A DNA stretch of 64,000 nt from Eubacteriales bacterium (lineage in GTDB: Bacteria > Bacillota > Clostridia > Oscillospirales > CAG-382): the NCBI GenBank assembly GCA_045536535.1, contig JAZSNS010000031.1, positions 64,934 to 128,933 of the forward strand, read 5' to 3'. Position 1 is the first letter of the stretch, and each line of letters opens with the position of its first letter. Positions 48,649 to 63,461 of the stretch are shown here, piece after piece. Both the position numbers and the translations under genes were made by a program. The notes under the pieces were generated by a model that saw only the letters and a list, made by a program, of their open reading frames with translations, was not told where the DNA came from and ran no database searches.

Positions 48649-48691
48649 AAATGTGTAAAAAAACAGTTTCTATATAAAAAAGGAGTTTATC

Positions 48692-49636
48692 ATGACTAAG
48701 ATCACTATCATCGGAACCGGCAGTGTTGGTTCCACCATAGCCTACACTCTCACAGTTCAGGGTATTGCGTCCGAAATCGTAATGATTGACATCAACGGCG
48801 AAAAAGCGATCGGCGAAGCACTTGACATCCGTCAAGGTACACCTTTTTGCCATCCCTGCACCATTTATGCAGGCAGTTATCCCGATGCGGCAGGTTCTGA
48901 CGTCGTTATCCTCACATCAGGTGTTGCAAGAAAGCCCGGTCAGTCCAGACTTGACCTCGCTCAGACCAACGTTAACATCACAAAGAGCATAATTCCCGAA
49001 ATCACCAAATATGCTCCCGATGCAACCTACGTTATCGTCAGCAACCCCGTTGATATTCTCACATATACTTTCTGTAAATATTCCGGGCTTCCGCACAACC
49101 GTATCATCGGTTCGGGTACTATCCTCGATACTTCAAGACTTCGTTCGAGAATCTCCGAATATTACCAGGTCAACCAGCAGAACGTTCATGCATACGTTCT
49201 CGGCGAACACGGCGACAGCAGTTTCATTCCTTGGTCGCTCGCAAACATCTCCAACGTTCCCGTTGAAAACTATAGTGATGCACTTCTTCACAACAACGGC
49301 GTTTATCCCAAACTCGACAAGGCAGAAGTCGAAGAATATGTCCGCAAGTCAGGCGCATCGGTCATCCAGCGCAAAGGCGCGACCTTCTATGCGGTTTCGA
49401 TATCGGTTTGCCGTATCGTCAAAGCGCTTCTTTCGGGCATTGATACAACACTTACCGTTTCGACCATGCTTGAAGGCGAATACGGAATCAATGACGTTTG
49501 TTTGAGTCTTCTCACTATCATCGGCAACAAGGCTGCAAACGGCAAGATCCTTCTTCCTCTTAACGATGAAGAAATCAAGGCCCTTAATCACAGCGCAGAT
49601 GAGTTGAAGAACGTTATCAACAACCTTCAATGGTAA
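48692..49636 (+). CDS. L-lactate/malate dehydrogenase family enzyme; Arg at specificity position suggests malate dehydrogenase
   Basis: IIGTGSVGS Rossmann motif, GEHGDS catalytic His and GSGTILDT. The substrate loop is SGVARKPGQSRLDL, where canonical LDHs read ..NQKPGETRLDL. Confidence 0.9.
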   Translation: MTKITIIGTGSVGSTIAYTLTVQGIASEIVMIDINGEKAIGEALDIRQGTPFCHPCTIYAGSYPDAAGSDVVILTSGVARKPGQSRLDLAQTNVNITKSIIPEITKYAPDATYVIVSNPVDILTYTFCKYSGLPHNRIIGSGTILDTSRLRSRISEYYQVNQQNVHAYVLGEHGDSSFIPWSLANISNVPVENYSDALLHNNGVYPKLDKAEVEEYVRKSGASVIQRKGATFYAVSISVCRIVKALLSGIDTTLTVSTMLEGEYGINDVCLSLLTIIGNKAANGKILLPLNDEEIKALNHSADELKNVINNLQW

Positions 49637-49667
49637 TTAATTTAGTGATATAGTGAGGTTATAAAAA

Positions 49668-51044
49668 ATGGAATACCGTATTGAACACGATTCTATGGGC
49701 GAAATGAAGGTCCCCGCAGACCGTCTTTGGGCTGCGCAAACTCAGAGAAGCCGCGAAAATTTCGAAATCGGCGTTGGCATTGAAACGATGCCCGCAGAAA
49801 TAATCCGCGCGTTCGGCGTTCTCAAACAGGCCGCCGCTGTTACCAACAACGCGCTCAAACCCGAAAAGATGACCGATGAAAAACTCACCGCCATCAAACA
49901 GGCTTGCGATGAAGTTATCGAAGGCAAACTTAACGGTCACTTCCCTCTTGTCGTATGGCAGACGGGTTCGGGCACTCAGTCGAACATGAACTCCAATGAG
50001 GTCATTGCGAACCGCGCAAATGAAATTCTCGGCAAAAAACTTTGCCACCCCAACGATGACGTTAACATGAGCCAATCCTCGAACGACACCTTCCCGACCG
50101 CAATGCACATCGCGGCGGTTATCGCTTTGGAAGACAAGCTCATTCCCGCAGTTGACGAACTTATTGCTACTTTTCTCCGTCTTGAAGTCGAAAACGAAGG
50201 TATCGTCAAGAGCGGCAGAACGCATCTCCAAGATGCAACCCCCATTAAGTTCAGTCAGGAAATCAGCGGTTGGAGATCCAGCCTTCAAAAAGACGTTGAA
50301 CTTATCAAACGTTCTGTCGAACCTTTGCGCGAACTTGCGCTCGGCGGCACTGCCGTCGGCACGGGGCTGAACGCTCCCAAAGGATTTGCCGAAAGAGTTG
50401 CCGAAGAAGTCAGCAACATCACGGGCAAGACCTTCATCACCGCAGAAAACAAGTTCCACGCACTTACCTCAAAAGATGAACTCGTTTTCGCGCACGGCGC
50501 TATCAAAGCTCTCGCTTGCGATATGATGAAGATCGCAAACGATATCCGTTGGCTCGCTTCCGGTCCGCGAGACGGGCTCGGAGAAATTTTCATCCCCGAA
50601 AACGAGCCCGGCTCCTCGATTATGCCCGGCAAGGTAAACCCGACTCAGTGCGAAGCGGTCACTATGGTTGCCGTTCAGGTTATGGGTAACGACGTTGCTG
50701 TCGGTATGGCGGCATCGCAGGGGAACTTTGAACTCAACGTATTTATGCCTGTTTGCATTTACAATTTCCTTCAATCCGCCAGACTTCTTGCAGAAGCAAT
50801 CGTTTCATTCAACAAGAACTGCGCTGTCGGTATTACCGCAAACAAAGAAAAAATGCATCACAATCTTCACAACTCGTTGATGCTCGTTACCGCGCTCAAT
50901 CCCTACATCGGTTATGAAAACGCGGCAAAAACCGCCAAAAAGGCGTTCAAAGACAATATCTCGCTCAAAGAAGCCTGCGTTGAACTCGGTTTCCTTACCG
51001 CAGAAAGATTTGACGAAGTTTTCCATCCCGAACAGATGGTTTAA
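49668..51044 (+). CDS. fumC: class II fumarate hydratase
   Basis: GSSIMPGKVNP signature, 458 aa. Confidence 0.96.
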   Translation: MEYRIEHDSMGEMKVPADRLWAAQTQRSRENFEIGVGIETMPAEIIRAFGVLKQAAAVTNNALKPEKMTDEKLTAIKQACDEVIEGKLNGHFPLVVWQTGSGTQSNMNSNEVIANRANEILGKKLCHPNDDVNMSQSSNDTFPTAMHIAAVIALEDKLIPAVDELIATFLRLEVENEGIVKSGRTHLQDATPIKFSQEISGWRSSLQKDVELIKRSVEPLRELALGGTAVGTGLNAPKGFAERVAEEVSNITGKTFITAENKFHALTSKDELVFAHGAIKALACDMMKIANDIRWLASGPRDGLGEIFIPENEPGSSIMPGKVNPTQCEAVTMVAVQVMGNDVAVGMAASQGNFELNVFMPVCIYNFLQSARLLAEAIVSFNKNCAVGITANKEKMHHNLHNSLMLVTALNPYIGYENAAKTAKKAFKDNISLKEACVELGFLTAERFDEVFHPEQMV

Positions 51045-51104
51045 AAACGGGTGTTTTTCAGAAAATAATTATTTCCTATGCAATTTTTACCGGAGGTATT
51101 ATAA

Positions 51105-51896
51105 ATGAAGTTCAGTTACTTCCCCGGGTGCACTCTCAAAAACAAAGCGAAAGATCTTGACATTTACGCAAGAAAATGCGCCGAAGTTTTGGGTGTTACT
51201 TTGGAAGAAATAGAAAACTGGCAATGTTGCGGCGGCGTTTTTACCACCGCAAGGAACGAAGTTGCCACAAAACTTTCCTCGGTTCGCGTTCTTAAAGCCG
51301 CGAAGGAGAAAGATCAAGCGTTGGTTACCGTTTGTTCGGCTTGCCACAACGTCGTTAAGCAGACAAACCATGCGATGCAGAACGACGCTGATTTTGCAAA
51401 CAAAGTGAACCTTTATATGAACGAAGGCGAATATGACGGTTCTACACAGGTTTACCATTATCTGGAAATGCTTCGCGACGTTATCGGTTTTGACAATCTT
51501 AAAGAAAAAGTTGTCAACCCGTTCAAAGGCAGAAAAATCGCGGCTTATTACGGATGTCTTCTTTTGAGGCCGAATTCGGTCATGAGAATGGACGATCCCG
51601 AAAACCCCAGCATCATTGAGGACCTTATCCGTGCTATCGGCGCAGAACCCGTTATTTACGGTTTCAGAAACGAATGTTGCGGCGGTTACGTCAGAATGGA
51701 GAGTCCCGAACTTGCCGTTAAAAAAAGCAACACGGTCAGCAACAGCGCGATCAACGCAGGAGCAGAAATGATCGTTACCGCATGTCCGCTTTGCAAATAC
51801 AACCTTGAAAAGAGCGGTTCTAAGATCCCCGTTGTTTATATCACCGAACTTCTTGCGGAAGCATTGGGAGTTAAGGAGGGCGACGATGAGCAATAA
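51105..51896 (+). CDS. hdrB: heterodisulfide-reductase subunit B-like protein (two CCG domains)
   Basis: YFPGCTL...WQCCGG...CSAC, and a second copy YYGCLL...ECCGG...CPLC. Confidence 0.88.
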   Translation: MKFSYFPGCTLKNKAKDLDIYARKCAEVLGVTLEEIENWQCCGGVFTTARNEVATKLSSVRVLKAAKEKDQALVTVCSACHNVVKQTNHAMQNDADFANKVNLYMNEGEYDGSTQVYHYLEMLRDVIGFDNLKEKVVNPFKGRKIAAYYGCLLLRPNSVMRMDDPENPSIIEDLIRAIGAEPVIYGFRNECCGGYVRMESPELAVKKSNTVSNSAINAGAEMIVTACPLCKYNLEKSGSKIPVVYITELLAEALGVKEGDDEQ

Positions 51897-52278
51897 AAAC
51901 AAATATCTTCAAGAAGAATTGCTCCGCATGAGCGGCGTCAACCCCAGAAAATGCATGCGTTGCGGCAAATGTTCGGCAACCTGTCCCGCTTATGACGAGA
52001 TGGAATATCATCCCCACCAATTTGTTTTCATGGTCGAAAGCGGCGATATCGAACCGTTGCTCGAATCGAAATCGCTTTACAGATGTCTCACCTGCTTTGC
52101 CTGTGTTGACAGATGTCCGCGCGGTGTTGAACCCGCAAAACTTGTCGAAGCGGTTCGTCTTGCTGCAATCCGCAAGCAGGGCAACAACCACATGACGGCA
52201 AACGACGTTCCCGAATTGATCGAAGACGATACGCCTCAACAGCTTATCGTTTCGGCATTCAGAAAATACACGAAGTAA
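51886..52278 (+). CDS. hdrC: heterodisulfide-reductase subunit C-like 2x[4Fe-4S] protein
   Basis: CMRCGKCSATCP and CLTCFACVDRCP. Start is at ATG 51886 after AAGGAGG, overlapping hdrB by 11 nt. The track start at 51805 lies inside hdrB. Confidence 0.88.
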   Translation: MSNKNKYLQEELLRMSGVNPRKCMRCGKCSATCPAYDEMEYHPHQFVFMVESGDIEPLLESKSLYRCLTCFACVDRCPRGVEPAKLVEAVRLAAIRKQGNNHMTANDVPELIEDDTPQQLIVSAFRKYTK

Positions 52279-52293
52279 GGAGGAAAAGGCAAA

Positions 52294-54288
52294 ATGCAAA
52301 GAATTGGTGTTTTTGTATGTTGGTGCGGCAGTAATATCGCAGGTACTGTTGACGTTAAAGCCGTTGCCGAAGCGCTCAAAAGCGAGCCCGGCGTTGTCTT
52401 TTCCACCAACTATCAGTACATGTGTTCCCAAGCAGGTCAGGAACTTATCAAGGACGCCATTAAAGAGCATAATCTCACCGGCGTTGTAGTTTGTTCCTGT
52501 TCGCCCCGTATGCACGAAGCGACGTTCCGTAAAACCGTCGCCGCCGCAGGGATCAACCCTTATATGCTTGAAATCGCAAATATCCGCGAGCAATGCTCCT
52601 GGGTACATAAAGATATGGCTGTCGGTACCGAAAAGGCAATTATCCTCGGTAAAGCGGCTATCGCCAAGGTCAACCTTAACACTCCGCTCACTCCCGGTGA
52701 ATCGCCCGTTACCAAACGTGCGCTTGTTATCGGTGGCGGTATTGCGGGCATTCAGACCGCGCTTGACATCGCAGACGCAGGTTTTGAAGTTGACATCGTT
52801 GAAAAGAAGCCGACGATCGGCGGCAAGATGGCACAACTTGATAAGACCTTCCCGACGCTCGACTGCGCGGCTTGTATCCTCACCCCGAAAATGGTTGACG
52901 TTGCGCAAAATGAAAAGATCCGCATCTTCTCTTACAGCGAAGTGGCAGAAGTCGGCGGATTCGTTGGCAACTTTGACGTTAAGATCAAGAAGAAGGCGCG
53001 TTACGTTAAGGAAGAGCTTTGCACAGGCTGCGGAGCTTGTACCGAAAAATGTCCTATGAAGAAGGTTCCCAACGACTTTAACCTTAATATGGACACAAAG
53101 CGCGCAATATACATTCCCTTTGCACAGGCGGTTCCGAACGTTGCTACTATCGACCCCGATTACTGCAACATGCTCAAAAACGGCAAATGCGGTGTTTGCG
53201 CAAAGGTCTGTACCGCAGGTGCGATCGATTACACGCAAAAAGACGAAATCATCGAAGAAAAATACGGCGCGATCGTCGTTGCTACCGGTTTCAATCCGAT
53301 CAGCATGGATAAATTCGATGAATTCGCATACAACCAATCAAAAGACGTTATAACCTCGCTTGAATTCGAACGTCTTACCAACGCGGCAGGTCCGACTGCG
53401 GGCAAGTTGCTCCGTCCCTCCGACGGAAAGCATCCGCACACGATCGTTTTCGTTCAATGCGTTGGCTCGCGTTGCGACGCATGTGCGGAAAAAGGCAAGG
53501 AATATTGCTCGAAGATCTGCTGTATGTACACCGCAAAACATGCGATGCTCACCAGAGACAAATATCCCGATACCGACGTTTACGTATTCTATATCGACGT
53601 CAGAACTCCCGGTAAGAATTTTGACGAGTTCTATCGCAGAGCGGTCGAAGAATACGGAGTGCATTATATCAAAGGCATGGTTGGCAAGGTCAGTCCCGAA
53701 GGCGACAAACTTCTCGTTCAGGCTTCGGATCTGCTTGCAGACAAACAGCTTAAAATCGAAGCAGACCTTGTTGTTCTTGCCGCCGCGATCGAGCCCGATA
53801 AATCGGCGCGTTCGCTCGCAACCATGCTTACCGCAAGCATGGACACCAACGACTTCTTCACCGAAGCGCACCCGAAACTCCGTCCCGTTGAAAGTCCGAC
53901 GGCAGGCGTTTTCCTTTCGGGTGCATGCCAAGGTCCTAAGGATATTCCCGAAACCGTTTCGCAGGCAGGCGCTGCCGCCGCGAAGGTTATCGGACTTCTT
54001 GCCAAAGACAAACTCATGGGCAACCCCTGTGTTGCGCATTCAGACGAAATGATGTGCAACGGTTGCTCGTCATGCGAAAAGGTTTGTCCTTACGGTGCTA
54101 TCACTTACGAAGACAAAGAATTCCGTATGCCCGACAGAACCACTTTGGTTCGACGTATTGCAAAAGTCAACCCCGCAGTTTGTCAGGGTTGCGGTTGCTG
54201 TACCGTTGCTTGTCCTTCGGGCGCGATGGATCTCAAAGGATTCGCGAGTGAACAAATCATTGCGGAGGTAGATGCGATATGCAAATGA
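52294..54288 (+). CDS. hdrA: heterodisulfide-reductase subunit A-like FAD/FeS flavoprotein
   Basis: 664 aa with an N-terminal VCWCGSNI Cys domain, the VIGGGIAGIQTALDIA FAD fold, and inserted and C-terminal ferredoxin motifs (CTGCGACTEKCP, CGVCAKVC, CNGCSSCEKVCP, CQGCGCCTVACP). Confidence 0.92.
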   Translation: MQRIGVFVCWCGSNIAGTVDVKAVAEALKSEPGVVFSTNYQYMCSQAGQELIKDAIKEHNLTGVVVCSCSPRMHEATFRKTVAAAGINPYMLEIANIREQCSWVHKDMAVGTEKAIILGKAAIAKVNLNTPLTPGESPVTKRALVIGGGIAGIQTALDIADAGFEVDIVEKKPTIGGKMAQLDKTFPTLDCAACILTPKMVDVAQNEKIRIFSYSEVAEVGGFVGNFDVKIKKKARYVKEELCTGCGACTEKCPMKKVPNDFNLNMDTKRAIYIPFAQAVPNVATIDPDYCNMLKNGKCGVCAKVCTAGAIDYTQKDEIIEEKYGAIVVATGFNPISMDKFDEFAYNQSKDVITSLEFERLTNAAGPTAGKLLRPSDGKHPHTIVFVQCVGSRCDACAEKGKEYCSKICCMYTAKHAMLTRDKYPDTDVYVFYIDVRTPGKNFDEFYRRAVEEYGVHYIKGMVGKVSPEGDKLLVQASDLLADKQLKIEADLVVLAAAIEPDKSARSLATMLTASMDTNDFFTEAHPKLRPVESPTAGVFLSGACQGPKDIPETVSQAGAAAAKVIGLLAKDKLMGNPCVAHSDEMMCNGCSSCEKVCPYGAITYEDKEFRMPDRTTLVRRIAKVNPAVCQGCGCCTVACPSGAMDLKGFASEQIIAEVDAICK

Positions 54289-54713
54289 AAGAATATAAAC
54301 CTTTGATCGTAGCATTTTGCTGCAACTGGTGTTCTTATGCAGGCGCAGACCTTGCAGGCAACAACAGATTGAATTACCCCGCAGAAGTCAAGATCATTCG
54401 TGTTCCCTGCTCTTGCAGAGTCAATCCGATGTTCATTCTTCGCGCTTTCCAGCGCGGCGCGGACGGTGTTATCCTTTGCGGTTGCCACCCCGGTGACTGT
54501 CATTATACATCCGGCAACTATTTCACAAGACGCAGAATGACGTTGCTTTTCTCGATGCTTGATTATCTCGGCATTGAAAGAGAACGCACCCGCGTTGAAT
54601 GGGTTTCCGCAGCAGAAGGCGCAAAGTTTGCCGCCACCATGAACGATTTTGCCGAAAAGGTTGCTGCCCTCGGCGAAAACAAGAGATTGGAGGACCTCAG
54701 ATGCAAAAAATAA
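54279..54713 (+). CDS. mvhD: MvhD/FlxD-like hydrogenase iron-sulfur subunit
   Basis: AFCCNWCSYAGAD...VPCSCRV...LCGCHPGDCHY. Overlaps hdrA by 10 nt. Confidence 0.9.
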   Translation: MQMKEYKPLIVAFCCNWCSYAGADLAGNNRLNYPAEVKIIRVPCSCRVNPMFILRAFQRGADGVILCGCHPGDCHYTSGNYFTRRRMTLLFSMLDYLGIERERTRVEWVSAAEGAKFAATMNDFAEKVAALGENKRLEDLRCKK

Positions 54714-55693
54714 CCCGTGACGTTTTGGTCGAAAAAGCGGTTTCCATGCTCGAAAGCGGTGACGTTTGCTGTGTTCTCGGTTGGAGAAAGGGCGAATTTG
54801 ATTACGACATCACTCCCGCCGTTTTCACAAGCAAGGAAGATATCGAATCAAATTTCGTATTCAACGACTTTTGCGGCGCAAACTTTTCAAAATATTTAAT
54901 TCAGAAAACCCGCAAGGCGGAAGGAAAGATTCTTGTTTTCCTCAAACCCTGCGATACTTACAGTTTTAACCAACTCCTTACCGAGCACCGTTTTGACCGC
55001 AATCTTGTTTATGCGGTCGGAATCCCCTGCGAAGGTATGGCGGACATAAACAAGGTCAAAGAAGTCGTCGGCGAAGGCATCTCCTCGATCGATTTTGACG
55101 GCGACAAGATTCTTGTTAACACCATTTACGATGACGAACCTCTTGCGGTGGAAGCCAAAAGCGTCATTGCTGAACGCTGCATAAACTGCAAGAGCAAAAA
55201 GCACGTCGCCTTTGACGAGCTTATCGGCGAAGACGGAGATGTTATCGAATCGGGCAGATTTGACGAAGTTGAAAAAATCGAAGCAATGACTCCCGACGAA
55301 AGATTTGCTTTCTGGCAGAACGAACTTTCAAAATGCATTCGTTGCAACGCATGCCGCGACGTTTGTCCCGCCTGCACATGTGAAAAGTGCGTTTTCGACA
55401 ACCCGAAATCGGGCGTTGAAAACAAAGCGGCGGCAAACAGTTTTGAAGAAAAAATGTTCCACATCATTCGCGCGTTCCACGTTGCAGGCCGTTGCACCGA
55501 CTGCGGCGAATGTTCAAGAGTCTGCCCTCAGCACATTCCGCTTCATTTGTTGAACAGAAAATTTATCAAAGATATTGATCTCTTTTACGGCGAATATCAA
55601 GCAGGTGAAGAAGTCGGCTCGCGCGCTCCGCTTGTTGACTACACCACCGATGATCTTGAACCCGGCGAAGTTTTTGAAGGGAGGGGCAACTGA
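54701..55693 (+). CDS. 4Fe-4S cluster protein (FlxC-like)
   Basis: 330 aa from ATG 54701 (GGAGGA upstream), overlapping mvhD by 13 nt. Motifs are CIRCNACRDVCPAC and CTDCGECSRVCP. The family call is by architecture and context only. Confidence 0.75.
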   Translation: MQKITRDVLVEKAVSMLESGDVCCVLGWRKGEFDYDITPAVFTSKEDIESNFVFNDFCGANFSKYLIQKTRKAEGKILVFLKPCDTYSFNQLLTEHRFDRNLVYAVGIPCEGMADINKVKEVVGEGISSIDFDGDKILVNTIYDDEPLAVEAKSVIAERCINCKSKKHVAFDELIGEDGDVIESGRFDEVEKIEAMTPDERFAFWQNELSKCIRCNACRDVCPACTCEKCVFDNPKSGVENKAAANSFEEKMFHIIRAFHVAGRCTDCGECSRVCPQHIPLHLLNRKFIKDIDLFYGEYQAGEEVGSRAPLVDYTTDDLEPGEVFEGRGN

Positions 55694-56712
55694 TGTTTAA
55701 ATGCTCGTTTGATTCCCTTGACGGCATTTTTGCGAAGATCGCGAACAACGCCACGCTTTATCTCCCCGCTGACAACGGCGACGGCAAAGCAGTTTTCACA
55801 AAATGGGAAAACGGAATCGTTTGGAGCAACGCTCTCAACACCGAAAGAAGCCCCAAGGACTTCTTCTTCCCTCAGTTTGAAAACATGATGGAATTCAAAG
55901 TTGAAGGCAAGTCCATCGAAATCAGCGACATTCGCAATGAATCCGAAGATTTCGTTGTGTTCGGCGTTCGTGCCTGCGACGTTAAAAGTTTTGACATTCT
56001 CGACAGAGTTTTCCTTGTTGACCCCTGTGACAGTTATTATGCAAATCGCAGAGAACACGGAATCATTGTTTCGGTTGCTTGCACAAAGCCTTCTGAAACC
56101 TGTTTCTGCAAAACCTTCGGCATTGACTGCACAAATCCCGGCGGCGATATCGCCGTTTGGAAGACAGAAAATGCTCTTTATTGGACTGCAAACACCGAAA
56201 AAGGCGAAAAGCTTTTGAATTCGCTCGGTCTTGAAGAATGCACCGACGATGCGGTCAACGCACAAAAAGAAAAGACCGAAAAGATCATGAAAAAACTTCC
56301 GCTTGCAAACCTCACAACCGACGGTTTCGGCGGAGGCAAGACCAAGGAACTTTTCGACCGTCCCGAATGGAAGACGCTTTCTGAATCCTGTCTCGGCTGC
56401 GGTACATGTACCTTTGTCTGCCCGACATGTCAATGCTATGACATCAAGGATTTCAACACCGGCAAGGGTATCGTCCGTTTCCGTTGCTGGGACTCCTGCA
56501 TGTATTCCGATTTCACAAAAATGGCGCACGGCAACAACAGATTGAGTCAGGTCGAACGTTTCCGTCAGCGTTTCATGCACAAACTCGTTTATTATCCCGA
56601 AAATAACGAGGGTATCTTCGGTTGTGTCGGTTGCGGCAGATGCCTGGCTAAATGCCCTATTTCGATGAACATTGTTAAAGTTATGAAGACGATCGGAGGT
56701 AACGAGGAATGA
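55693..56712 (+). CDS. 4Fe-4S cluster protein, AsrA/HydB(sulfhydrogenase beta)/FlxB-like
   Basis: FGVRACD, ETCFCKTFG, CLGCGTCTFVCPTC and CVGCGRCLAKCP. TGATG overlap with the upstream gene. Confidence 0.8.
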   Translation: MFKCSFDSLDGIFAKIANNATLYLPADNGDGKAVFTKWENGIVWSNALNTERSPKDFFFPQFENMMEFKVEGKSIEISDIRNESEDFVVFGVRACDVKSFDILDRVFLVDPCDSYYANRREHGIIVSVACTKPSETCFCKTFGIDCTNPGGDIAVWKTENALYWTANTEKGEKLLNSLGLEECTDDAVNAQKEKTEKIMKKLPLANLTTDGFGGGKTKELFDRPEWKTLSESCLGCGTCTFVCPTCQCYDIKDFNTGKGIVRFRCWDSCMYSDFTKMAHGNNRLSQVERFRQRFMHKLVYYPENNEGIFGCVGCGRCLAKCPISMNIVKVMKTIGGNEE

Positions 56713-57542
56713 ACAATCGCAGAGAACCTTTGATCCCTGTTGTCGGCGTTATTACCGACGTTCGTATTGATACCCCCGACATCAAGACCTTCCGCGTTGT
56801 TACTCCCGACGGAAAGAAGGCGTTTGACCACATGCCCGGTCAGTGCGCGATGCTTTCTATCCCCGGTGTCGGCGAAGCGATGTTTTCGATCACATCGTCC
56901 CCGACAAACACCGAATTTATGGAATTTTCTATTAAAAAATGCGGTTGCGTTACCGATTGGCTCCACCAAGCAGAAGTCGGTCAGCAATTAACCATTCGCG
57001 GTCCTTACGGCAAGGCGTTTCCCGTTGACGATGCGTTCGTCGGCAAGAACCTCCTGTTCGTTGCGGGAGGCGTCGGTCTTGCTCCGCTTCGCTCGGTAAT
57101 CAATTATTGCCGTTATTATCGCGACAGATACGGCAAGATCGACATTGTTTACGGTTCGAGAAGCAAAGACGATCTTCTTCAATACAAAGAAATTATTGAA
57201 GAATGGGCCACCGATGAAGGTGTTAACGTTCATCTCACCATCGACCGTGAACAGGAAGGTTGGGACGGACACGTTGGTTTTGTGCCCAACTATGTTAAGG
57301 AACTCGGTTTTGACACCGACAAGACCGCAATACTTTGCGGACCTCCTATTATGATCAAGTTCACTCTTGACGGACTTCAAACGCTCGGTTTTGAGAAAAC
57401 TCAGGTTTACACAACGCTTGAACTCAAAATGAAATGCGCTATCGGCAAATGCGGCAGATGCAACGTCGGCTCGAAATACGTCTGCAAAGACGGCCCGGTT
57501 TTCCGATTTGACGAACTTGATGAACTTCCGAGCGAATATTGA
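56709..57542 (+). CDS. FAD/NAD(P)H-binding 2Fe-2S oxidoreductase, AsrB/HydG/PyrK/FlxA-like
   Basis: FNR-like fold (RPFSITS-like FSITSSP, LLFVAGGVGLAPLRS) and C-terminal CAIGKCGRC...C. ATGA overlap with the upstream gene. Confidence 0.87.
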   Translation: MNNRREPLIPVVGVITDVRIDTPDIKTFRVVTPDGKKAFDHMPGQCAMLSIPGVGEAMFSITSSPTNTEFMEFSIKKCGCVTDWLHQAEVGQQLTIRGPYGKAFPVDDAFVGKNLLFVAGGVGLAPLRSVINYCRYYRDRYGKIDIVYGSRSKDDLLQYKEIIEEWATDEGVNVHLTIDREQEGWDGHVGFVPNYVKELGFDTDKTAILCGPPIMIKFTLDGLQTLGFEKTQVYTTLELKMKCAIGKCGRCNVGSKYVCKDGPVFRFDELDELPSEY

Positions 57543-57592
57543 TAACTTCGCTCTCGCTCGAAAACCTACAAGGTAAAAAGGAGATTTATTTA

Positions 57593-58267
57593 ATGGAAAA
57601 TATGGTTAACATTTTTCTGTTCGGCAAAAAGTATTCGGTGCCGGACAACCTGACAATTATGAATGCTATGGAATACGCAGGCTATCAACTCGTCAGAGGT
57701 TGCGGATGCAGAAACGGTTTCTGCGGTGCTTGCGCTACCATTTACAGAATCAAAGGCGACAAGGAACTCAAATCCTGTCTCGCTTGCCAAACCAAAGTTG
57801 AAGATAACATGTATATCGCCACCCTGCCCTTCTTCCCTCTCGTTAAGCAGGTTTACGATATCAACACCGTTTCGATCAACGAGACCGTCATGATGCAACT
57901 TTACCCCGAAATCTATGCCTGCATCGGATGCAACGCCTGCACCAAGGCTTGTACGCAGGAGCTTAACGTTATGCAATACATTGCTTATGCTCAGCGCGGC
58001 GATTTCGAAAAATGCGCAGAAGAATCGTTCGACTGCGTAATGTGCGGCGTTTGCTCGTCACGTTGCCCCGCAGGTATTTCGCATCCGCAGGTTGCGATGC
58101 TTGCACGCAGAATCAACGGCAAATATCTCGCACCCAAATGTGATCATCTTGATGAACGCGTTCAGGAGATCAAAGACGGAACCTTTGCTGAACTCATTGA
58201 AGCACTTATGCAAAAGCCTATCGATGAGATCAAGGAACTTTACAACAACCGCGATATTGAGAAATAA
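57593..58267 (+). CDS. SdhB/FrdB-like iron-sulfur protein (2Fe-2S plus two Cys-cluster motifs)
   Basis: 224 aa from ATG 57593 (AAGGAG upstream). Motifs are CGCRNGFCGACA...C, CIGCNACTKAC and CVMCGVCSSRCP. Confidence 0.82.
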   Translation: MENMVNIFLFGKKYSVPDNLTIMNAMEYAGYQLVRGCGCRNGFCGACATIYRIKGDKELKSCLACQTKVEDNMYIATLPFFPLVKQVYDINTVSINETVMMQLYPEIYACIGCNACTKACTQELNVMQYIAYAQRGDFEKCAEESFDCVMCGVCSSRCPAGISHPQVAMLARRINGKYLAPKCDHLDERVQEIKDGTFAELIEALMQKPIDEIKELYNNRDIEK

Positions 58268-58281
58268 GGAGGGTAAAAGAG

Positions 58282-59886
58282 ATGTATTCCGAAAAATTTC
58301 AGAAATCTTTGGCTGCTGTCGAGGCCGCAAGAGAGAAAAACATTGCTCTTGAACCCGCACGCATGACCGCTCAGCAGAAAACGGACCTTCTTGCCGAATA
58401 TCATCCCGACTACAAACAAGATGAATTCGAAATTCTTGCAATAGGTCCCAACAAGGGCGACAAGGTTCCGAAAGAACTTGCCGCAACGCTTCAAGCACAC
58501 AGCCGCGTTTGCGCGGAATGTATTGACCTTGAAAATCCCGATTATGACGTTGACGTTCTCGTTATCGGCGGCGGCGGCGCAGGTTCTTCTGCCGCTATCG
58601 AAGCGCACGAGGCAGGCGCAAACGTTATGATCGTCACAAAGCTCCGTATCGGTGACGCAAACACAATGATGGCGGAAGGCGGTATTCAGGCGGCTGATAA
58701 GCCCAACGACTCGCCTGCAATTCACTTTGTCGACGCTTTTGGCGGCGGCCACTTTGCCGCAAAACGCGAACTTCTTCAAAAACTCGTTTGTGATGCTCCC
58801 GAGGCGATCCAATGGTTAAGCGAACTCGGCGTTGAGTTCGACAAGACCGAAGACGGCACGATGGTCACAACTCACGGCGGCGGCACTTCGAGAAAGCGTA
58901 TGCACGCCGCAAAGGACTATTCGGGAGCGGAAATCATGAGAACGCTCCGCGACGAGGTTCTCAACAGAAATATTCCCGTTGTTGACTTTACTTCCGCGAT
59001 CGAGCTCATTCTCGATGAAAACGGCAATGCCGCAGGAGCGGTTCTTCTTAACATGGAAACCAAGGAGATCCTTATTGCGAAGGCTAAAACCGTTATCATC
59101 GCCACCGGTGGTGCAGGCAGAATGCATTATCAAGGATTCCCTACCTCGAACCACTACGGCGCAACGGCTGACGGTCTTGTTCTCGGTTACAGAGCAGGCG
59201 CGAAACTTCTCTATGCCGAAACGCTTCAATACCACCCGACGGGTGCGGCTTATCCCGAACAGATCTTCGGCGCGCTTGTTACCGAAAAGGTTCGTTCTCT
59301 CGGTGCAAAACTCGTTAACGTAAACGGCGAAGTTTTCATGCATCCGCTTGAAACCCGCGACGTTTCCGCTGCTTCCATTATCCGTGAATGTTCGACTCGC
59401 GGTAACGGCGTTGAAACCGATCAGGGCAAAGCCGTTTGGCTTGATACCCCGATGATCGAAGCGATCGGCGGCGAAGGAACTATTGAAAAGAGAATTCCCG
59501 CGATGATGAGAATGTTCGGTAAATACGGCATCGACATCCGCAAAGAGCCGATTCTTGTTTACCCGACGCTTCACTATCAGAACGGCGGTCTTGACATCAC
59601 TCCCGACGGCATGACCACCAACGTTAAGAACCTCTTTGTCGCAGGCGAAGCAGTCGGCGGTATTCACGGCAAGAACAGACTTATGGGCAATTCGCTGCTT
59701 GACATCATCGTATTCGGCAGAATCGCAGGTAAATCGGCAGGCGCGGCTTGCAAGGACATCACCGTTGGCAAACTTACGCTTGACCACGTTGCAAAGTTCG
59801 AGAAGGAAATTGCAGACGCAGGCATCGTTACAGATACCGTATCTCCTAAACTCCTCCCCGATTACACCAGAAAGGTTAACGGTTAA
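58282..59886 (+). CDS. succinate dehydrogenase/fumarate reductase-family flavoprotein, soluble type
   Basis: VLVIGGGGAGSSAA FAD fold, LQYHPTG, TEKVRSLG, PTLHYQNGG and GEAVGGIHGKNRLMGNSLLD. The N-terminal extension of about 88 aa lies before the Rossmann fold. Confidence 0.88.
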   Translation: MYSEKFQKSLAAVEAAREKNIALEPARMTAQQKTDLLAEYHPDYKQDEFEILAIGPNKGDKVPKELAATLQAHSRVCAECIDLENPDYDVDVLVIGGGGAGSSAAIEAHEAGANVMIVTKLRIGDANTMMAEGGIQAADKPNDSPAIHFVDAFGGGHFAAKRELLQKLVCDAPEAIQWLSELGVEFDKTEDGTMVTTHGGGTSRKRMHAAKDYSGAEIMRTLRDEVLNRNIPVVDFTSAIELILDENGNAAGAVLLNMETKEILIAKAKTVIIATGGAGRMHYQGFPTSNHYGATADGLVLGYRAGAKLLYAETLQYHPTGAAYPEQIFGALVTEKVRSLGAKLVNVNGEVFMHPLETRDVSAASIIRECSTRGNGVETDQGKAVWLDTPMIEAIGGEGTIEKRIPAMMRMFGKYGIDIRKEPILVYPTLHYQNGGLDITPDGMTTNVKNLFVAGEAVGGIHGKNRLMGNSLLDIIVFGRIAGKSAGAACKDITVGKLTLDHVAKFEKEIADAGIVTDTVSPKLLPDYTRKVNG

Positions 59887-59906
59887 CGGAGGGTTAAGAG
59901 ATTTAA

Positions 59907-61295
59907 ATGAAAAACAAAAACACTAATATCAAGAAGGCAATCGGCATTGTTCTGGCATTGTTAATAGTTGCCGGTGTTGCCGCTTGGTGTTGTTACAACG
60001 CTCTTGCGGACAACGCAGACGGGGTTGAAAGCACCTTTAACTTCTCGTCGACCTTCGTGCTCTTCACTCTTGTATTTGTCATTGTTGCTTTCGGTTATCT
60101 TTTGGGTTCGATCGAAATCAAAGGCGTTTCTCTCGGCACGGCAGGCGTTTTCCTTATCGCCATTCTTGTCGGTTGGCTTTGTACCCTTAACTTCGGAGAC
60201 GTTCCGCTTTTGGGCGCATTCCACATTGAGGGCGAAAGCGATGCGATCGTTACCACATTCAAATCCACCATTCAGAACATCGGTCTTATCCTTTTCGTCG
60301 GTGCGGTTGGATTTATCGCAGGTCCTAACTTCTTCAAGAACCTCGCGAAAAACTTCAAGACCTACATCCTTTTAGGTTTCGTCATCATCCTTTCGGGCAC
60401 TGCCGTTGCAGTCATCTGCTCGCTTCTCACGCCCGAATTCGGGCCTGAATATTGGTCGGGTGTTCTTTCGGGTGCTTTGACCTCTACCCCCGGTTTTTCT
60501 GCCGCAAAAGATGCGGTTTTGGGTCACCCCGATCAGGACAGTCTTGAAGCGCTTATCACTCTCGGTCATGCGGTTGCATATCCGTTCGGCGTTATCGGGG
60601 TTGTGCTTTTTGTGCAGCTTATCCCCAAAATACTCAAAGCGGATATGAACAAAGAAGTTGAACTTCTTAGAGCAGGCGCTTCCGAAGAAAGAAAGCTGCC
60701 CGACGGTCTTTTCAAATGCGATGAACTCGGACTTATGTCATTTGCACTCGCTATTGTTTCCGGACTTATTCTCGGTTCGATAACAATTCCGCTTTCTGCC
60801 GAAGGATATGCCGAGGGCGCACCTTGTTTCAGTTTGGGAACAACAGGCGGTGTTCTTATCATGTGCTTGATTTTCGGTCATTTCGGTCATTTCGGAAAAC
60901 TTTCGCTTGAAATCCCCGAAAAGACGCTTAAAGTTTGCAGAGAGTTAGGTCTTATGCTCTTCCTCCTCGGCGCAGGTTTTCACGGCGGCGTTGCGTTGGT
61001 CGAGCAGGTCAGCGAATATGGCGCGAGCATCGTTGTTTGGGGACTCCTCGGCGGTGCGGTCATGACGATTGCACCGATGATCGTCGGACTTTTGCTTGCA
61101 AAACTTCTTATGAAGCTCCCCTTGCTCAACTCGCTCGGTTCGATCACAGGCGGTATGACATCAACCCCCGCTTTGGGCGCGCTCATCAAAACGGCAAAAA
61201 CCGATGACGTTGCGGCGGCTTATGCTTCGACATATCCCATTGCACTTGTGCTTATCGTTCTTGCTTGTCAGTTGATGATAACATTGATGAACTAA
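59907..61295 (+). CDS. AAE-family (aspartate:alanine exchanger / YidE-YbjL-SucE-like) transporter
   Basis: 462 aa in two homologous hydrophobic halves. The first-half motif GYLLGSIEIKGVSLGTAGVF is typical of the Asp-Al_Ex domain as I recall it. Confidence 0.75.
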   Translation: MKNKNTNIKKAIGIVLALLIVAGVAAWCCYNALADNADGVESTFNFSSTFVLFTLVFVIVAFGYLLGSIEIKGVSLGTAGVFLIAILVGWLCTLNFGDVPLLGAFHIEGESDAIVTTFKSTIQNIGLILFVGAVGFIAGPNFFKNLAKNFKTYILLGFVIILSGTAVAVICSLLTPEFGPEYWSGVLSGALTSTPGFSAAKDAVLGHPDQDSLEALITLGHAVAYPFGVIGVVLFVQLIPKILKADMNKEVELLRAGASEERKLPDGLFKCDELGLMSFALAIVSGLILGSITIPLSAEGYAEGAPCFSLGTTGGVLIMCLIFGHFGHFGKLSLEIPEKTLKVCRELGLMLFLLGAGFHGGVALVEQVSEYGASIVVWGLLGGAVMTIAPMIVGLLLAKLLMKLPLLNSLGSITGGMTSTPALGALIKTAKTDDVAAAYASTYPIALVLIVLACQLMITLMN

Positions 61296-61296: not shown

Positions 61297-61331
61297 CAAA
61301 AAAACTCGGTTCGATGTGAACCGAGTTTTTT
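61297..61331. terminator. bidirectional rho-independent terminator
   Basis: AAAAAAA-CTCGGTTC-gatgt-GAACCGAG-TTTTTT between convergent genes. Confidence 0.8.
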
Positions 61332-61358: not shown

Positions 61359-62030
61359 TCAGTCTTCATTTTTCTTGGAAGCAAGAAACATATAAACGAC
61401 AGCTGCCAAAGCGCCGCCGACGAGCGGAGCGACGATGAACACCCAAACGTTTGACAATGCTTCGCCGCCAACGAGAAGCGCGGGGCCAAAGGAACGAGCG
61501 GGGTTAACGGAAGTGCCGGTGAAATAAATACCGAAGATGTGAACGAGGGTGAGAGTCAAGCCGATAACGATACCCGAAACGGCACCGTTTTCGATTTTTG
61601 AAGTGACACCGAGAATTGCGAGAACAAACACGAAGGTAAGGATAACTTCAATGATAAGAGATTTTGCGATATCACCTTCAAAGAGAGCGTTTGCACCGAG
61701 ATTGCTTTCCGCACCGAAGAAATAACGGAGAACACCTGCGCCTGCAATCGCACCGGCAAACTGAGCAAGAATGTAGCCGATAAAATCGGTCACCGACATT
61801 TTCTTGCTGATGAGCATTGCGATCGAAACGGCGGGATTGATATGACAGCCGGAGATGTTACCGATCGAATAAGCCATAGCGACAATAACGAGACCGAATG
61901 CCAAAGCGGTGAGCAGGTAACCGGTGCCGTTTTCAGCCGAACAACCGACCGCACATGCCGTTCCGCAGGCGAACAATACCAACACGAAAGTTCCGATAAA
62001 CTCCGAAACGTACTTTTTCACAGAGTTCAT
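61359..62030 (-). CDS. aqpZ: MIP-family channel (aquaporin Z-like)
   Basis: Two NPA boxes (HINPAVS, SVNPARS), 223 aa. Confidence 0.92.
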   Translation of the reverse strand: MNSVKKYVSEFIGTFVLVLFACGTACAVGCSAENGTGYLLTALAFGLVIVAMAYSIGNISGCHINPAVSIAMLISKKMSVTDFIGYILAQFAGAIAGAGVLRYFFGAESNLGANALFEGDIAKSLIIEVILTFVFVLAILGVTSKIENGAVSGIVIGLTLTLVHIFGIYFTGTSVNPARSFGPALLVGGEALSNVWVFIVAPLVGGALAAVVYMFLASKKNED

Positions 62031-62207
62031 AGTAAAATCCTCCTAAAATTTGAAATATTTGCTATTGCTTTTTTATTATAACACATATATAATTTATTAC
62101 AAGTGTTTTTAATAAAGAAGTCAATAAAAATTTTTGACGATTCTGCATTATATAATACAACTTTTGTTGAATTTTTTCAAAAACAGATTCAGAAAGGTTC
62201 AGAACCG

Positions 62208-63461
62208 ATGACAAGCATAATTAAAAATGCCGCAGCAGGACAGAAGAAGGCTTTGGAAACCCTTTACCACAGCGTTGAAAAAAAGGTTTTCTTTTTAGCA
62301 TGTTCTTTGCTTGGCGATGAAAAGGAAGCGGTCAACGCTTCGGTACAGGCTTTTAAAAGTGCATTTGAGTCCTTGAAAAACGAAGGCATCGAAACCGAGA
62401 AGGATTTTTCCGATCTCGTCATAAAAAAGCTTGCGAATAACTGTAAAAAGATCATTACCAAAAAGGATCAGAAGGCTTTTAAAATCCCTGCCAACAAGAA
62501 CTTCGTACTGACGGGTGCGGTTGACACCGATTGCAATAACACCGAACTCGCCGACCGTATTCTGGACAGATTCGCTTTTGTTCAGAAAACGGTTTTGGTT
62601 CTTGATATCGTCGGCGGACTTGACAAAAAACAGATCGCCGCGATTTGTAAAACAGACGTCAAAACCGTTGAAGCCGCGATCGATGCTCAAAACGGAAATA
62701 TCGAACGTCTTTCCGACGGGAAGATGACTCTTGAAAATATCTCTGATACGTTCAGAAAGCGCGAAAACGCGATTTCTCTTCCCCGAGAAGCAAATGACGA
62801 AATCAAAAAGATCATCGCTGAAATATCCGCACCTTATAAAAAGAGAAGACGCAACATTGCAATCATCATAACGTCTATCGTTCTTGTTGTTTGTCTGATC
62901 GCAACCGGTGTTATTATTCACAATTTGAACAACCAACCTCAGGAATATGAAGAAGGCGCGATCTACACCGCCGAAATCGAAGTTGAAAAATACGGTACTA
63001 TTAAACTCGAACTTGACTCAAACGTTGCGCCGATAACAGTCAAAAACTTCGTTTCGCTTGCGAACAGCGGTTTTTATGACGGCTTGACCTTCCACCGCAT
63101 CATAAGCGGATTTATGATTCAGGGTGGCGACCCCGACGGAAACGGCATGGGCGGTTCGGATGAAGAAATTTTCGGCGAATTCAGCGAAAACGGTTGGGAA
63201 AACAACCTTTTGCATAAGCGCGGCGTCATTTCAATGGCTCGCAGCGAAAAGCCCAACAGTGCAAGCTCGCAGTTCTTCATCATGCACAAAGATGCACCTC
63301 ATCTCGACGGCAAATATGCCGCATTCGGCTGGGTTACCGACGGTATTGAAGTTGTTGATGAAATTTGTGAAAAGGCCGCCGACCCTGTTGACGGAAACGG
63401 TTTGATCCACCCCGATCATCAGCCGAGGATAAAGACAATTAAGATCACAGGCACAAAATAA
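62208..63461 (+). CDS. membrane-anchored cyclophilin-type peptidyl-prolyl isomerase with sigma-70/ECF-like N-terminal domain
   Basis: C-terminal cyclophilin motifs are FHRIISGFMIQGGDP and SMARSEKPNSASSQFFI. There is a single TM segment (IAIIITSIVLVVCLIATGVII). The N-terminal ~230 aa resemble sigma region 2 and region 4. Start at ATG 62208 (MTSIIKN) is preferred over the track start at 62103, but is uncertain. Confidence 0.85.
   Translation: MTSIIKNAAAGQKKALETLYHSVEKKVFFLACSLLGDEKEAVNASVQAFKSAFESLKNEGIETEKDFSDLVIKKLANNCKKIITKKDQKAFKIPANKNFVLTGAVDTDCNNTELADRILDRFAFVQKTVLVLDIVGGLDKKQIAAICKTDVKTVEAAIDAQNGNIERLSDGKMTLENISDTFRKRENAISLPREANDEIKKIIAEISAPYKKRRRNIAIIITSIVLVVCLIATGVIIHNLNNQPQEYEEGAIYTAEIEVEKYGTIKLELDSNVAPITVKNFVSLANSGFYDGLTFHRIISGFMIQGGDPDGNGMGGSDEEIFGEFSENGWENNLLHKRGVISMARSEKPNSASSQFFIMHKDAPHLDGKYAAFGWVTDGIEVVDEICEKAADPVDGNGLIHPDHQPRIKTIKITGTK

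Follow-up and report, generated by a model that had tools for sequence, protein, structure and literature searches.

Succinate is a major fermentation intermediate in the gut and the rumen and a precursor of propionate, and classical fumarate reduction requires a membrane anchor and a quinone. In the succinate-producing bacterium Pseudoclostridium (Clostridium) thermosuccinogenes a 'succinate operon' has been described that comprises a fumarate hydratase gene (CDQ83_RS03365), seven Flx-Hdr genes, the two genes of a fumarate reductase (RS03325-20; frdA of ~534 and frdB of ~224 codons) and a gene for a small hypothetical protein (Koendjbiharie et al., 2020, BMC Microbiol, PMC7282089). RNA-seq showed high and co-ordinated expression of this operon, which changed as a block by ~3- to 4-fold between two CO2 conditions, and for its fumarate reductase a link with the reduction of ferredoxin was assumed, "as proposed previously" (PMC7282089). 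As cited there, the idea had been put forward in an earlier preprint (Koendjbiharie and van Kranenburg, 2019, doi 10.20944/preprints201912.0288.v1). Here, we describe an operon in a 64,000-nucleotide stretch of contig JAZSNS010000031.1 of an Eubacteriales bacterium (hereafter the window, to which all plain positions refer). By its architecture this operon, with its nine-gene core at 51105-59886, is of the P. thermosuccinogenes type, as matched on gene order and gene sizes.

We propose that the cluster encodes a cytoplasmic, quinone-independent, NADH-dependent fumarate reductase, which probably bifurcates electrons and reduces ferredoxin as well; judged from sequence and gene context, we put the probability of this reading at roughly 0.6. 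The central idea of a Flx-Hdr-linked fumarate reductase with ferredoxin reduction is not new. To the literature consulted we add how widely the operon occurs among Clostridia of the gut and the rumen, its extension by rex, hydrogenase, mdh and transporter genes, the defining peculiarities of the flavoprotein, and variants of the core in archaea (with Mvh) and in a proteobacterium (with a NuoF-like protein). The first-pass annotation of this DNA, made from the letters alone, had known of no characterised Hdr/Flx-linked fumarate reductase. A literature search (bifurcating fumarate reductase; Flx-Hdr with fumarate reductase; Ruminococcus flavefaciens with Hdr) agreed in so far as it found no biochemical study, but the hypothesis itself had already been published for P. 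thermosuccinogenes. For Ruminococcus champanellensis, a STRING link of HdrA to Sdh/Frd is briefly mentioned in a 2024 preprint.

The Nine-Gene Flx-Hdr-Frd Block

All nine same-strand open reading frames (ORFs) read in the first-pass annotation are present at their positions:

51105-51896, + strand: HdrB-like subunit (Pfam CCG x2; predicted non-cubane [4Fe-4S] sites)
51886-52278, + strand: HdrC-like 2x[4Fe-4S] ferredoxin subunit (Fer4_8/Fer4_17; top NCBIfam match HdrC)
52294-54288, + strand: HdrA FAD/FeS flavoprotein, presumed site of bifurcation (NF040770 HdrA2, 787 bits)
54279-54713, + strand: MvhD/FlxD-like [2Fe-2S] electron-transfer protein (Pfam FlpD, 185 bits; VhuD, 132 bits)
54701-55693, + strand: FlxC-like poly-Cys FeS protein, 330 aa with 18 Cys (Fer4 dicluster domains only)
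55693-56712, + strand: FlxB-like FeS protein of the sulfhydrogenase beta/AsrA family, 339 aa (Fer4_22, 104 bits)
56709-57542, + strand: FlxA-like FNR-fold NAD(P)H/FAD protein, 277 aa, presumed point of NADH entry (FAD_binding_6, NAD_binding_1 and DHODB_Fe-S_bind)
57593-58267, + strand: FrdB-like FeS subunit, 224 aa (Fer2_4/Fer2 and Fer4 domains)
58282-59886, + strand: FrdA-fold flavoprotein, 534 aa (FAD_binding_2, 233 bits)

Recomputation gave the same overlaps (hdrB/hdrC 11 nt, hdrA/flxD 10 nt, flxD/flxC 13 nt, flxC/flxB 1 nt, flxB/flxA 4 nt) and gaps (hdrC-hdrA 15 nt, flxA-frdB 50 nt, frdB-frdA 14 nt) as had been read before. Each of the nine genes has an ATG start behind a GGAGG-type Shine-Dalgarno sequence; for the FrdB-like subunit this is ATG 57593 and not the upstream TTG 57539 of the ORF finder, because homologues begin MENMVN. 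The ordered arrangement is not due to chance, the same block being found in 56 of 57 related species genomes with enough flanking sequence.

By their domains and motifs the seven Hdr/Flx subunit types are all present and intact, in the order hdrBCA-flxDCBA, and the subunit inventory of FlxABCD-HdrABC with which they had been equated is matched at the domain level (Pfam, NCBIfam, and full-length alignments of HdrA and HdrB). The HdrB-like protein carries both CCG motifs read earlier, with complete cysteine patterns (C9...C41C42...C77xxC80 and C151...C191C192...C227xxC230), and aligns with methanogen HdrB over its full length (E 3.5e-35), every CCG cysteine included; it scores almost equally on the HdrB model (150 bits) and the MfrE/SdhE model (148 bits) of NCBIfam. 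The eight cysteines of the HdrC-like protein fall into two CxxCxxCxxxC motifs, in agreement with the two [4Fe-4S] clusters assigned to it. HdrA (664 aa) aligns over its whole length, with 693 bits, to the Methanothermococcus HdrA of solved structure (5odc_A), and this match, together with that to HdrA2, accounts for its FAD domain, the cluster at its N-terminus and both the inserted and the C-terminal ferredoxin domains. The FlxB-like protein scores 179 bits on ShyB, 169 on HydB and 133 on AsrA, all under the NCBIfam model cut-offs, and the FlxA-like protein has family matches to hydrogenase gamma, HydG and AsrB (NCBIfam). For the FlxC-like protein Pfam and NCBIfam return generic Fer4 matches only, and the position of its gene is kept in 56/57 loci.

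A Fumarate Reductase-Like Flavoprotein and Its FeS Partner

The flavoprotein resembles a fumarate reductase, and its scores lie below the cut-offs that define canonical SdhA/FrdA, TfrA and NadB: it reaches 344 of 718 bits on TfrA, its best NCBIfam model, 285 of 567 on the Sdh/Frd model TIGR01812 and 265 of 453 on NadB. The match to TfrA spans only positions 6-425 of the model's 546, the matches ending at model position ~419-425, and Pfam finds no match to the C-terminal domain PF02910 (Succ_DH_flav_C). The motifs quoted in the first-pass annotation are in place (HPTG 318, TE..R 334, HYQNGG 431, NRLMGNSLLD 465), and alignment to E. coli SdhA and FrdA shows a complete catalytic set of H318, T334, E335, R338, R359 (in an RD motif), H431 and R466. 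Their counterparts in E. coli FrdA we take to be H232 for H318, R287 for R359, H355 for H431 and R390 for R466, along with T244/E245. The dicarboxylate-binding and catalytic residues are invariant in alignments of the family. Asn127 replaces the covalent-FAD His (SHT of E. coli FrdA/SdhA) and is itself invariant down to ~40% identity; the FAD is predicted to be bound non-covalently, which is typical of one-way fumarate reductases. The first 88 residues form a conserved additional N-terminal segment, which is confidently folded in an AlphaFold model built with archaeal homologues included (pLDDT 80.6, pTM 0.85; a first model from a shallow alignment of sequences of at least 87% identity had a pLDDT of 63.7 and was discarded). 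The top PDB match of this model in Foldseek is FrdA of the E. coli quinol:fumarate reductase (QFR) (1kf6_A, E 5e-27, TM 0.64), so that the FrdA-like character claimed for the flavoprotein is borne out by both its fold and its catalytic residues.

A neighbor-joining (NJ) tree of the flavoprotein with E. coli FrdA, SdhA and NadB and with NCBIfam-labelled representatives places it in a clade of its own, apart from NadB and beside the group of TfrA and Sdh/Frd; clostridial, Asgard/Bathyarchaeota and fused members together form one clade with 100% bootstrap. The tree was used only for this tight Clostridia/archaea clade and for the exclusion of NadB, the L-aspartate oxidase with which, as the first-pass annotation had it, the flavoprotein should not group, and does not, by scores or tree. 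The NadB identity was rejected on the score (265 against 453 bits) and on the separate placement in the tree, away from E. coli NadB and from a representative scoring above the NadB cut-off; the conserved FeS partner and a natural FrdB-FrdA fusion also oppose it.

The failure of every curated NCBIfam cut-off, the missing C-terminal domain, the separate clade, and the existence of distant members (L089, L091) that have neither an FeS partner nor a carboxylate context could be taken to mean that the pair is no fumarate reductase but serves L-aspartate, another enoate or an unknown acceptor, the adjacency of fumC and mdh being incidental. We regard this as very improbable, given that the dicarboxylate-binding and catalytic residues are all invariant, that fumarase adjoins the pair both in Clostridia (52/55 loci) and in Bathyarchaeota, that carboxylate transporters lie next to it (AAEx family; CitMHS in Congzhengia), and that P. 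thermosuccinogenes makes succinate and strongly expresses the matching operon.

The FrdB-like subunit has an SdhB-type architecture, with an N-terminal [2Fe-2S] domain followed by a dicluster domain (Pfam). Twelve cysteines are invariant across bacteria and archaea (39/44/47/65, 110/113/116/120 and 148/151/154/158); since the third cluster motif has four of them, a 4Fe-4S rather than a 3Fe-4S cluster is predicted, for a complement of 2Fe-2S + 2x[4Fe-4S]. In NCBIfam the protein matches the N-terminus of TfrB (E 3.8e-10) and, with its N-domain only, dhsB (E 1.8e-7; cut-off 88 bits). Its profile finds Wolinella FrdB weakly in the PDB (E 2e-6), and it is 23% identical to E. coli FrdB (E 0.013); as no strong SdhB match came from the PDB profile search, we do not class it as a true SdhB. 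Of the SdhB/FrdB-like and SdhA/FrdA-like pair claimed in the first-pass annotation, what stands is an anchor-less, Frd-like pair with a FrdA fold. The pair is not canonical SdhA/SdhB: it lacks the C-terminal flavoprotein domain and the covalent-FAD His, has two four-Cys motifs and no 3Fe-4S motif, and is only weakly similar to SdhB. In keeping with the earlier reading, the cluster has no membrane-anchor gene, and tblastn with E. coli FrdC, FrdD, SdhC and SdhD against the whole window gave no match below E=0.1, an insensitive test because anchors are poorly conserved.

The Wider Unit and Its Flanking Genes

The unit likely extends past the nine genes first noted to 46534-61295 (rex-hyd-mdh-fumC-hdrBCA-flxDCBA-frdBA-transporter), because hairpins bracket it and only short stems lie between:

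46333-46356, + strand: terminator-like hairpin after the upstream LysR-family gene (GCCTTGC-AAAT-GCAAGGC, then T6; read from the sequence)
46534-47169, + strand: rex, NADH/NAD+-sensing transcriptional repressor (NCBIfam NF003994, 254 bits, cut-off 130)
47218-48648, + strand: monomeric [FeFe] hydrogenase, group B1 (TIGR04105, 559 bits, cut-off 450)
48692-49636, + strand: LDH-family dehydrogenase, mdh (LDH model 360 bits, MDH model 281 bits)
49668-51044, + strand: fumC, class II fumarate hydratase (TIGR00979, 717 bits, cut-off 665)
59907-61295, + strand: AspT/YidE/YbjL (AAEx) family transporter, 462 aa (Pfam Asp-Al_Ex, 216 bits; TIGR01625 above cut-off)
61299-61331, no strand given: strong bidirectional intrinsic terminator with a 15-bp stem and T-run, end of the unit (terminator scan)

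The four upstream genes, all on the same strand, are 31-60 nt apart, and between the bounding hairpins the terminator scan finds no terminator-like stem of more than 9 pairs. The hairpin at 46333-46356, which likely marks the upstream boundary, is absent from the list of the consensus terminator scan, where terminator-like sites number 26 against a shuffle expectation of 23.5. A GC-rich inverted repeat (CGCGCGACGTTCACGCGCG, 46486-46506) lies ~30 nt before the rex start in a leader that is otherwise AT-rich; it does not fit the Rex-box consensus and could be a regulatory hairpin or operator.

The dehydrogenase at 48692-49636 reads GVARKPGQSR, with Arg where lactate dehydrogenases (LDHs) have Gln. 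Arg at this position distinguishes malate from lactate dehydrogenases, and the protein is, by this residue, probably a malate dehydrogenase (MDH). It also passes the NCBIfam cut-off for L-lactate dehydrogenase, and automatic annotation would probably misname it as such. The group B1 hydrogenase is a candidate sink for reduced ferredoxin. The AAEx-family transporter is a candidate succinate exporter; the family includes the succinate exporter SucE of Corynebacterium.

Conservation of the Operon in Clostridia

Close relatives of the flavoprotein number in the thousands and occur in Ruminococcaceae, Acutalibacteraceae and other metagenome-assembled genomes (MAGs) of Clostridia, the closest match (97% identity) being in a MAG from water-buffalo rectum. 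Taking one genome per species, 80 loci were returned with a FrdA identity of at least 75%, among them the cultured Yeguia hominis NSJ-40 and MAGs labelled Ruminococcus flavefaciens. Neighborhoods were scanned by tblastn with 14 window proteins. The full ordered series hdrB-hdrC-hdrA-flxD-flxC-flxB-flxA-frdB lies upstream of frdA in 56/57 loci with enough flank, so that the synteny between Hdr/Flx and FrdAB genes across related genomes, a check called for in the first-pass annotation, is intact in all but one. fumC is found upstream of hdrB in 52/55 loci and mdh upstream of fumC in 47/54, and a transporter of the AAEx family follows frdA in 46/69. In a dozen loci rex and/or hydrogenase genes adjoin the operon, often downstream, with rex itself recurring beside it in at least 12 related loci; homologues of the [FeFe] hydrogenase lie near it in L036, L046, L050, L056 and L060. 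The sole exception to the ordered block is a Congzhengia sp. MAG (L033, 8079-11605), in which frdBA has no hdr/flx block upstream; a CitMHS carboxylate transporter gene lies directly before frdBA, and genes for pyrimidine biosynthesis and PTS enzyme I are found further upstream. One close flavoprotein homologue of 605 aa (P0017, L001:2794-4611) contains an internal duplication of ~70 aa (WLDTPMIE...YQNGG), probably either an artefact of the assembly or the product of a recent tandem duplication.

Distant Relatives and Exchange of the Electron-Input Module

The same core is found outside Clostridia in other company. An Asgard contig (JBNGVH010000002.1, L083:2563-11656) has the order HdrA-MvhD-MvhG-MvhA-HycI-HdrC-HdrB-FrdB-FrdA, preceded by genes for 2-oxoacid:ferredoxin oxidoreductase. 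Its proteins are 52% (HdrA), 57% (MvhD), 41% (HdrC), 43% (HdrB), 52% (FrdB) and 58% (FrdA) identical to those of the window, so that the same Hdr and Frd sets are combined with a [NiFe] hydrogenase in place of FlxABC; its gene content suggests an equivalent of the clostridial system that is driven by H2 and not by NADH. The Asgard hdrA contains an in-frame TGA (L083:4141-4143) with clear HdrA similarity on both sides; it aligns with a position that is not Cys in the window HdrA and may be a sequencing error, a pseudogene mutation or a recoding, not an obvious selenocysteine. In Bathyarchaeota (CP070659.1, L082:6440-11662) malic enzyme, class I fumarase (alpha, then beta), FrdB and FrdA are encoded in succession with no Hdr/Flx genes adjacent, a lone CCG-domain protein being encoded ~7 kb upstream beside 2-oxoacid:ferredoxin oxidoreductase genes. 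A gammaproteobacterial MAG (JABINK010000023.1, L088:7366-10891) has FrdB, FrdA (47% identity) and a NuoF-like protein (Complex1_51K and NADH_4Fe-4S domains) encoded with overlapping ends; the last would provide this reductase core with yet another, third kind of electron input. FrdA-FrdB alone is found in a Prochlorococcus-like genome (L090), and a 727-aa protein (P0121, L087:5250-7433), encoded away from Hdr/Flx genes, is a natural fusion with the FrdB-like part at the N-terminus of the FrdA-like part.

The varied contexts across lineages suggest that the FrdAB core is ancient and portable and that the donor module is variable. The conserved FeS partner and the natural fusion argue that this partner is obligatory for the flavoprotein. 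An electron path from HdrB to FrdB, as the first-pass annotation had suggested, gains support from the HdrC-HdrB-FrdB-FrdA adjacency and orthology in the Asgard contig, and further from TfrB, a natural fusion of a FrdB and a CCG part to which both window proteins match in NCBIfam.

The NuoF-linked gammaproteobacterial member and those that stand alone also imply that the reductase core does not need bifurcation. The enzyme could then be a non-bifurcating, soluble NADH:fumarate oxidoreductase, in which HdrA/C/B are a mere wire from Flx to FrdAB. Ferredoxin would then not be reduced, and the free energy would be lost or would serve redox balancing only; some HdrA homologues, such as QmoA/B, are indeed not proven to bifurcate. 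We consider this quite unlikely: seven additional subunits kept in 56/57 genomes would be costly for a wire, HdrA is full-length with 693 bits to a structurally defined bifurcating enzyme, a ferredoxin-type monomeric hydrogenase and Rex recur beside the operon, and the biochemically characterised HdrABC-MvhD complexes all bifurcate (PMC5861303).

Proposed Mechanism

Gene content, motifs, fold, synteny and the swapping of modules across lineages are observations, and the context of mdh, fumC, a carboxylate exporter family, Rex and a ferredoxin-type hydrogenase fits fumarate reduction with ferredoxin as output. Independent links to fumarate come from the malic enzyme-fumarase-FrdBA series of Bathyarchaeota and from the CitMHS transporter beside frdBA in Congzhengia. 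In the proposed scheme, oxaloacetate would be reduced to malate by the LDH-family MDH, and malate dehydrated to fumarate by FumC. NAD(P)H would be oxidised at the FNR-type FlxA, and its electrons would reach the FAD of HdrA by way of the FeS proteins FlxB and FlxC and of FlxD, the MvhD-like protein; there the pair would be split. The high-potential branch would run through HdrC, the CCG protein HdrB and FrdB to the non-covalent FAD of FrdA, reducing fumarate to succinate, and the low-potential branch uphill through the ferredoxin domains of HdrA to ferredoxin, for a net reaction of 2 NADH + fumarate + Fd(ox) -> 2 NAD+ + succinate + Fd(red, 2 e-). The AAEx-family transporter would export the succinate, and Rex would couple expression to the NADH/NAD+ ratio. 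Reduced ferredoxin would pass its electrons to the monomeric [FeFe] hydrogenase encoded next door or to an Rnf encoded outside the unit. We infer that the proteins act as a physical complex made from a single transcript, with NADH as donor, direct transfer from HdrB to FrdB, and bifurcation to ferredoxin.

The energetics would allow this. With E0' values of +33 mV for fumarate/succinate and -320 mV for NAD+/NADH (PMC5861303), NADH-dependent fumarate reduction yields ~-68 kJ/mol, which is enough to pay for ferredoxin reduction: at an estimated cost of +19 to +35 kJ per electron pair, ~-33 to -49 kJ/mol would be left. The reverse direction (succinate oxidation with confurcation) was rejected on thermodynamics and on the missing covalent FAD.

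A thiol could take the place of the direct HdrB-FrdB contact. Flx-HdrABC would then be an NADH-dependent, ferredoxin-reducing disulfide reductase as in the model for Desulfovibrio, with some small thiol or a protein disulfide as its substrate, and FrdAB with the CCG protein would re-oxidise the thiol in the manner of archaeal Tfr; the net chemistry would be the same, with a diffusible or protein-bound dithiol as intermediate instead of a hard-wired FeS chain. HdrB does keep both full CCG motifs, aligned to the disulfide-reducing site of methanogen HdrB, TfrA is the best model for the flavoprotein, FrdB and HdrB match the two halves of TfrB, and fumarate reduction in methanogens uses TfrAB together with Mvh-Hdr. 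The authors of the P. thermosuccinogenes study, too, have Flx-Hdr passing electrons to "ferredoxin (and thiols)" (PMC7282089). Nevertheless, FrdB has no CCG domain of its own and the operon encodes a single CCG protein, so that reduction and re-oxidation of the shuttle would both fall to one site. Domain scans and translations reveal no thiol-cofactor or DsrC-like gene in the cluster, coenzyme M (CoM) and coenzyme B (CoB) are not known from Clostridia, and the Asgard HdrC-HdrB-FrdB-FrdA adjacency fits a wired unit at least equally well. We therefore rate a thiol shuttle as unlikely, if still deserving of some weight.

Several points weigh against an NADH-dependent, bifurcating fumarate reductase. 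To our knowledge, the CCG clusters of HdrB are the disulfide-reducing site in every characterised Hdr, and their use as an FeS relay is unprecedented. The literature search found no enzyme assay, purification or structure for any member. FrdBA pairs of the same family occur with no adjacent Hdr/Flx genes (the Congzhengia MAG, the fusion protein, Bathyarchaeota and the Prochlorococcus-like genome), and Hdr/Flx is thus no obligate partner of the reductase. In sequence the FeS subunit resembles SdhB only weakly, the deep nodes of the NJ tree are poorly supported, with very low bootstrap, and specificity for NADH or NADPH is not readable from sequence. Orthology to CDQ83_RS03320-RS03365 is a matter of order and sizes. 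A search for TTGTGAANNNNTTCACAA and TTGTTAANNNNTTAACAA with at most 3 mismatches upstream of rex, mdh and hdrB gave no convincing Rex operator, so that the case for Rex regulation is one of adjacency.

A more far-reaching version of the proposed bifurcating reductase is more tentative, and we would give it somewhat less than even odds. It holds that the nine proteins form one hard-wired Flx-Hdr-Frd complex in which the non-cubane HdrB clusters relay electrons into FrdB and do not reduce a disulfide, and that the reductase belongs to a wider family of soluble FrdAB enzymes with interchangeable donor modules. This would be a so far unrecognised family, marked by the N-terminal extension, the lack of the C-terminal domain and non-covalent FAD. 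Its donor modules would differ by lineage: Clostridia would use Flx with NADH, Asgard archaea the Mvh [NiFe]-hydrogenase with H2, and Gammaproteobacteria the NuoF-like protein.

Significance

The operon occurs in at least 56 species-level genomes of gut and rumen Clostridia and so is not the curiosity of one thermophile. If the proposed function is correct, it would explain how Clostridia form succinate with neither anchor nor quinone, with energy conserved via Rnf or electrons lost as H2, in a role parallel to that of Bcd/Etf in butyrate formation, and it would bring a new class of acceptor to Hdr-type bifurcation. In the more far-reaching version, the complex would be the first Hdr-type flavin-based bifurcating enzyme with a C=C bond (fumarate) as the high-potential acceptor and, together with Rnf, would give the succinate-forming Clostridia of gut and rumen a 'fumarate respiration' that needs neither quinone nor cytochrome. 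The archaeal and proteobacterial relatives are natural controls, and the nine subunits make a defined biochemical target, with relevance to the engineering of bio-succinate production.

Other Genes in the Window

Outside the unit, the window carries ordinary chromosomal genes (pheST, sigA, dnaG, priA, a PASTA kinase, a shikimate operon, citrate synthase). The citrate synthase, of the PRK14032 type (692 bits), lies in 41690-44423, ~3 kb upstream of the rex-frd unit, and is adjoined on the opposite strand by a gene of the HpnE/phytoene-desaturase-like amine oxidase family; a similar Amino_oxidase gene adjoins the archaeal and cyanobacterial frdAB loci L083, L089 and L090. Just past a divergent aquaporin Z gene (61359-62030, minus strand) starts a gene for a 452-aa protein (62103-63461) with a C-terminal cyclophilin-type peptidyl-prolyl isomerase domain (residues 291-427) and a long N-terminal region that has no Pfam match and includes a hydrophobic stretch.

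Comparison With Known Systems

The closest described system is the P. thermosuccinogenes operon, which has the same order of fumC, seven Flx/Hdr genes and two fumarate reductase genes, and the same proposed function. The sizes are close as well (in nt, P. thermosuccinogenes against the window: frdA 1603/1605, frdB 676/675, hdrB 784/792, fumC 1366/1377). The organisms differ, the window being closest to MAGs of uncultured gut and rumen Clostridia; the downstream gene is a ~250-nt hypothetical there and encodes the 462-aa AAEx transporter here, and rex and hydrogenase genes are not described as part of the P. thermosuccinogenes operon.

The electron-input module has the same seven subunit types, matched by domains, as FlxABCD-HdrABC of Desulfovibrio vulgaris, that is, an FNR-like FlxA, two FeS proteins, a MvhD-like FlxD and HdrA/B/C (Ramos et al., 2015, as cited in PMC7282089 and PMC5861303). 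The proposed role as an NADH-dependent, ferredoxin-reducing bifurcating module is also the same, whereas the gene order is inverted here (hdrBCA-flxDCBA), and the acceptor proposed for Desulfovibrio is a disulfide (DsrC) in place of the Frd-like flavoprotein/FeS pair of the operon.

A HdrA-type module that feeds a separate substrate reductase is also seen in MetFV-HdrABC-MvhD of Moorella and in QmoABC-AprAB of sulfate reducers, where AprA is a flavoprotein of the Frd superfamily with AprB as FeS partner. These have different substrate modules, none of which uses fumarate, and Qmo is membrane-linked. Bcd/EtfAB is an energetic analogue, in which ferredoxin is reduced in a step coupled to the reduction of a C=C bond with a similar potential (PMC5861303).

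Classical FrdABCD and SdhABCD share with the window pair the flavoprotein fold, the catalytic residues and a two-domain FeS partner with an N-terminal 2Fe-2S domain. The window pair differs from them in lacking anchors, the covalent-FAD His (Asn127 instead) and PF02910, and in having the 88-aa N-terminal extension and a third motif of four Cys. In type-E SdhABEF and in MfrABE of Campylobacter and Wolinella a CCG-domain protein likewise partners the Frd/Sdh FeS subunit, which in type-E enzymes forms a second 4Fe-4S cluster by means of an additional Cys. Unlike the window system, these enzymes are bound to the membrane and linked to quinone, and they work without HdrA, HdrC, MvhD or Flx; the 148 bits of the window HdrB on the MfrE/SdhE model are far below its equivalog cut-off of 500.

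A functional parallel is the methanogen pair of TfrAB and MvhADG-HdrABC in Methanothermobacter, in which fumarate reduction is coupled to ferredoxin reduction. TfrA is the best curated model for the window flavoprotein, and TfrB, an SdhB-like part fused to a CCG (HdrB-like) part, matches the pairing of FrdB and HdrB. TfrA has a C-terminal domain that the window flavoprotein lacks, and the FrdB-like and CCG proteins of the window are products of separate genes, six genes apart; the window pair is not counted as a TfrAB. The donor proposed here is NAD(P)H through Flx, not H2, and CoM-SH and CoB-SH are not expected in Clostridia. The Asgard locus looks like a merged Mvh-Hdr-Frd version of the methanogen arrangement, and by analogy the clostridial system would work like methanogen TfrAB and Mvh-Hdr merged into one cluster with NADH input.

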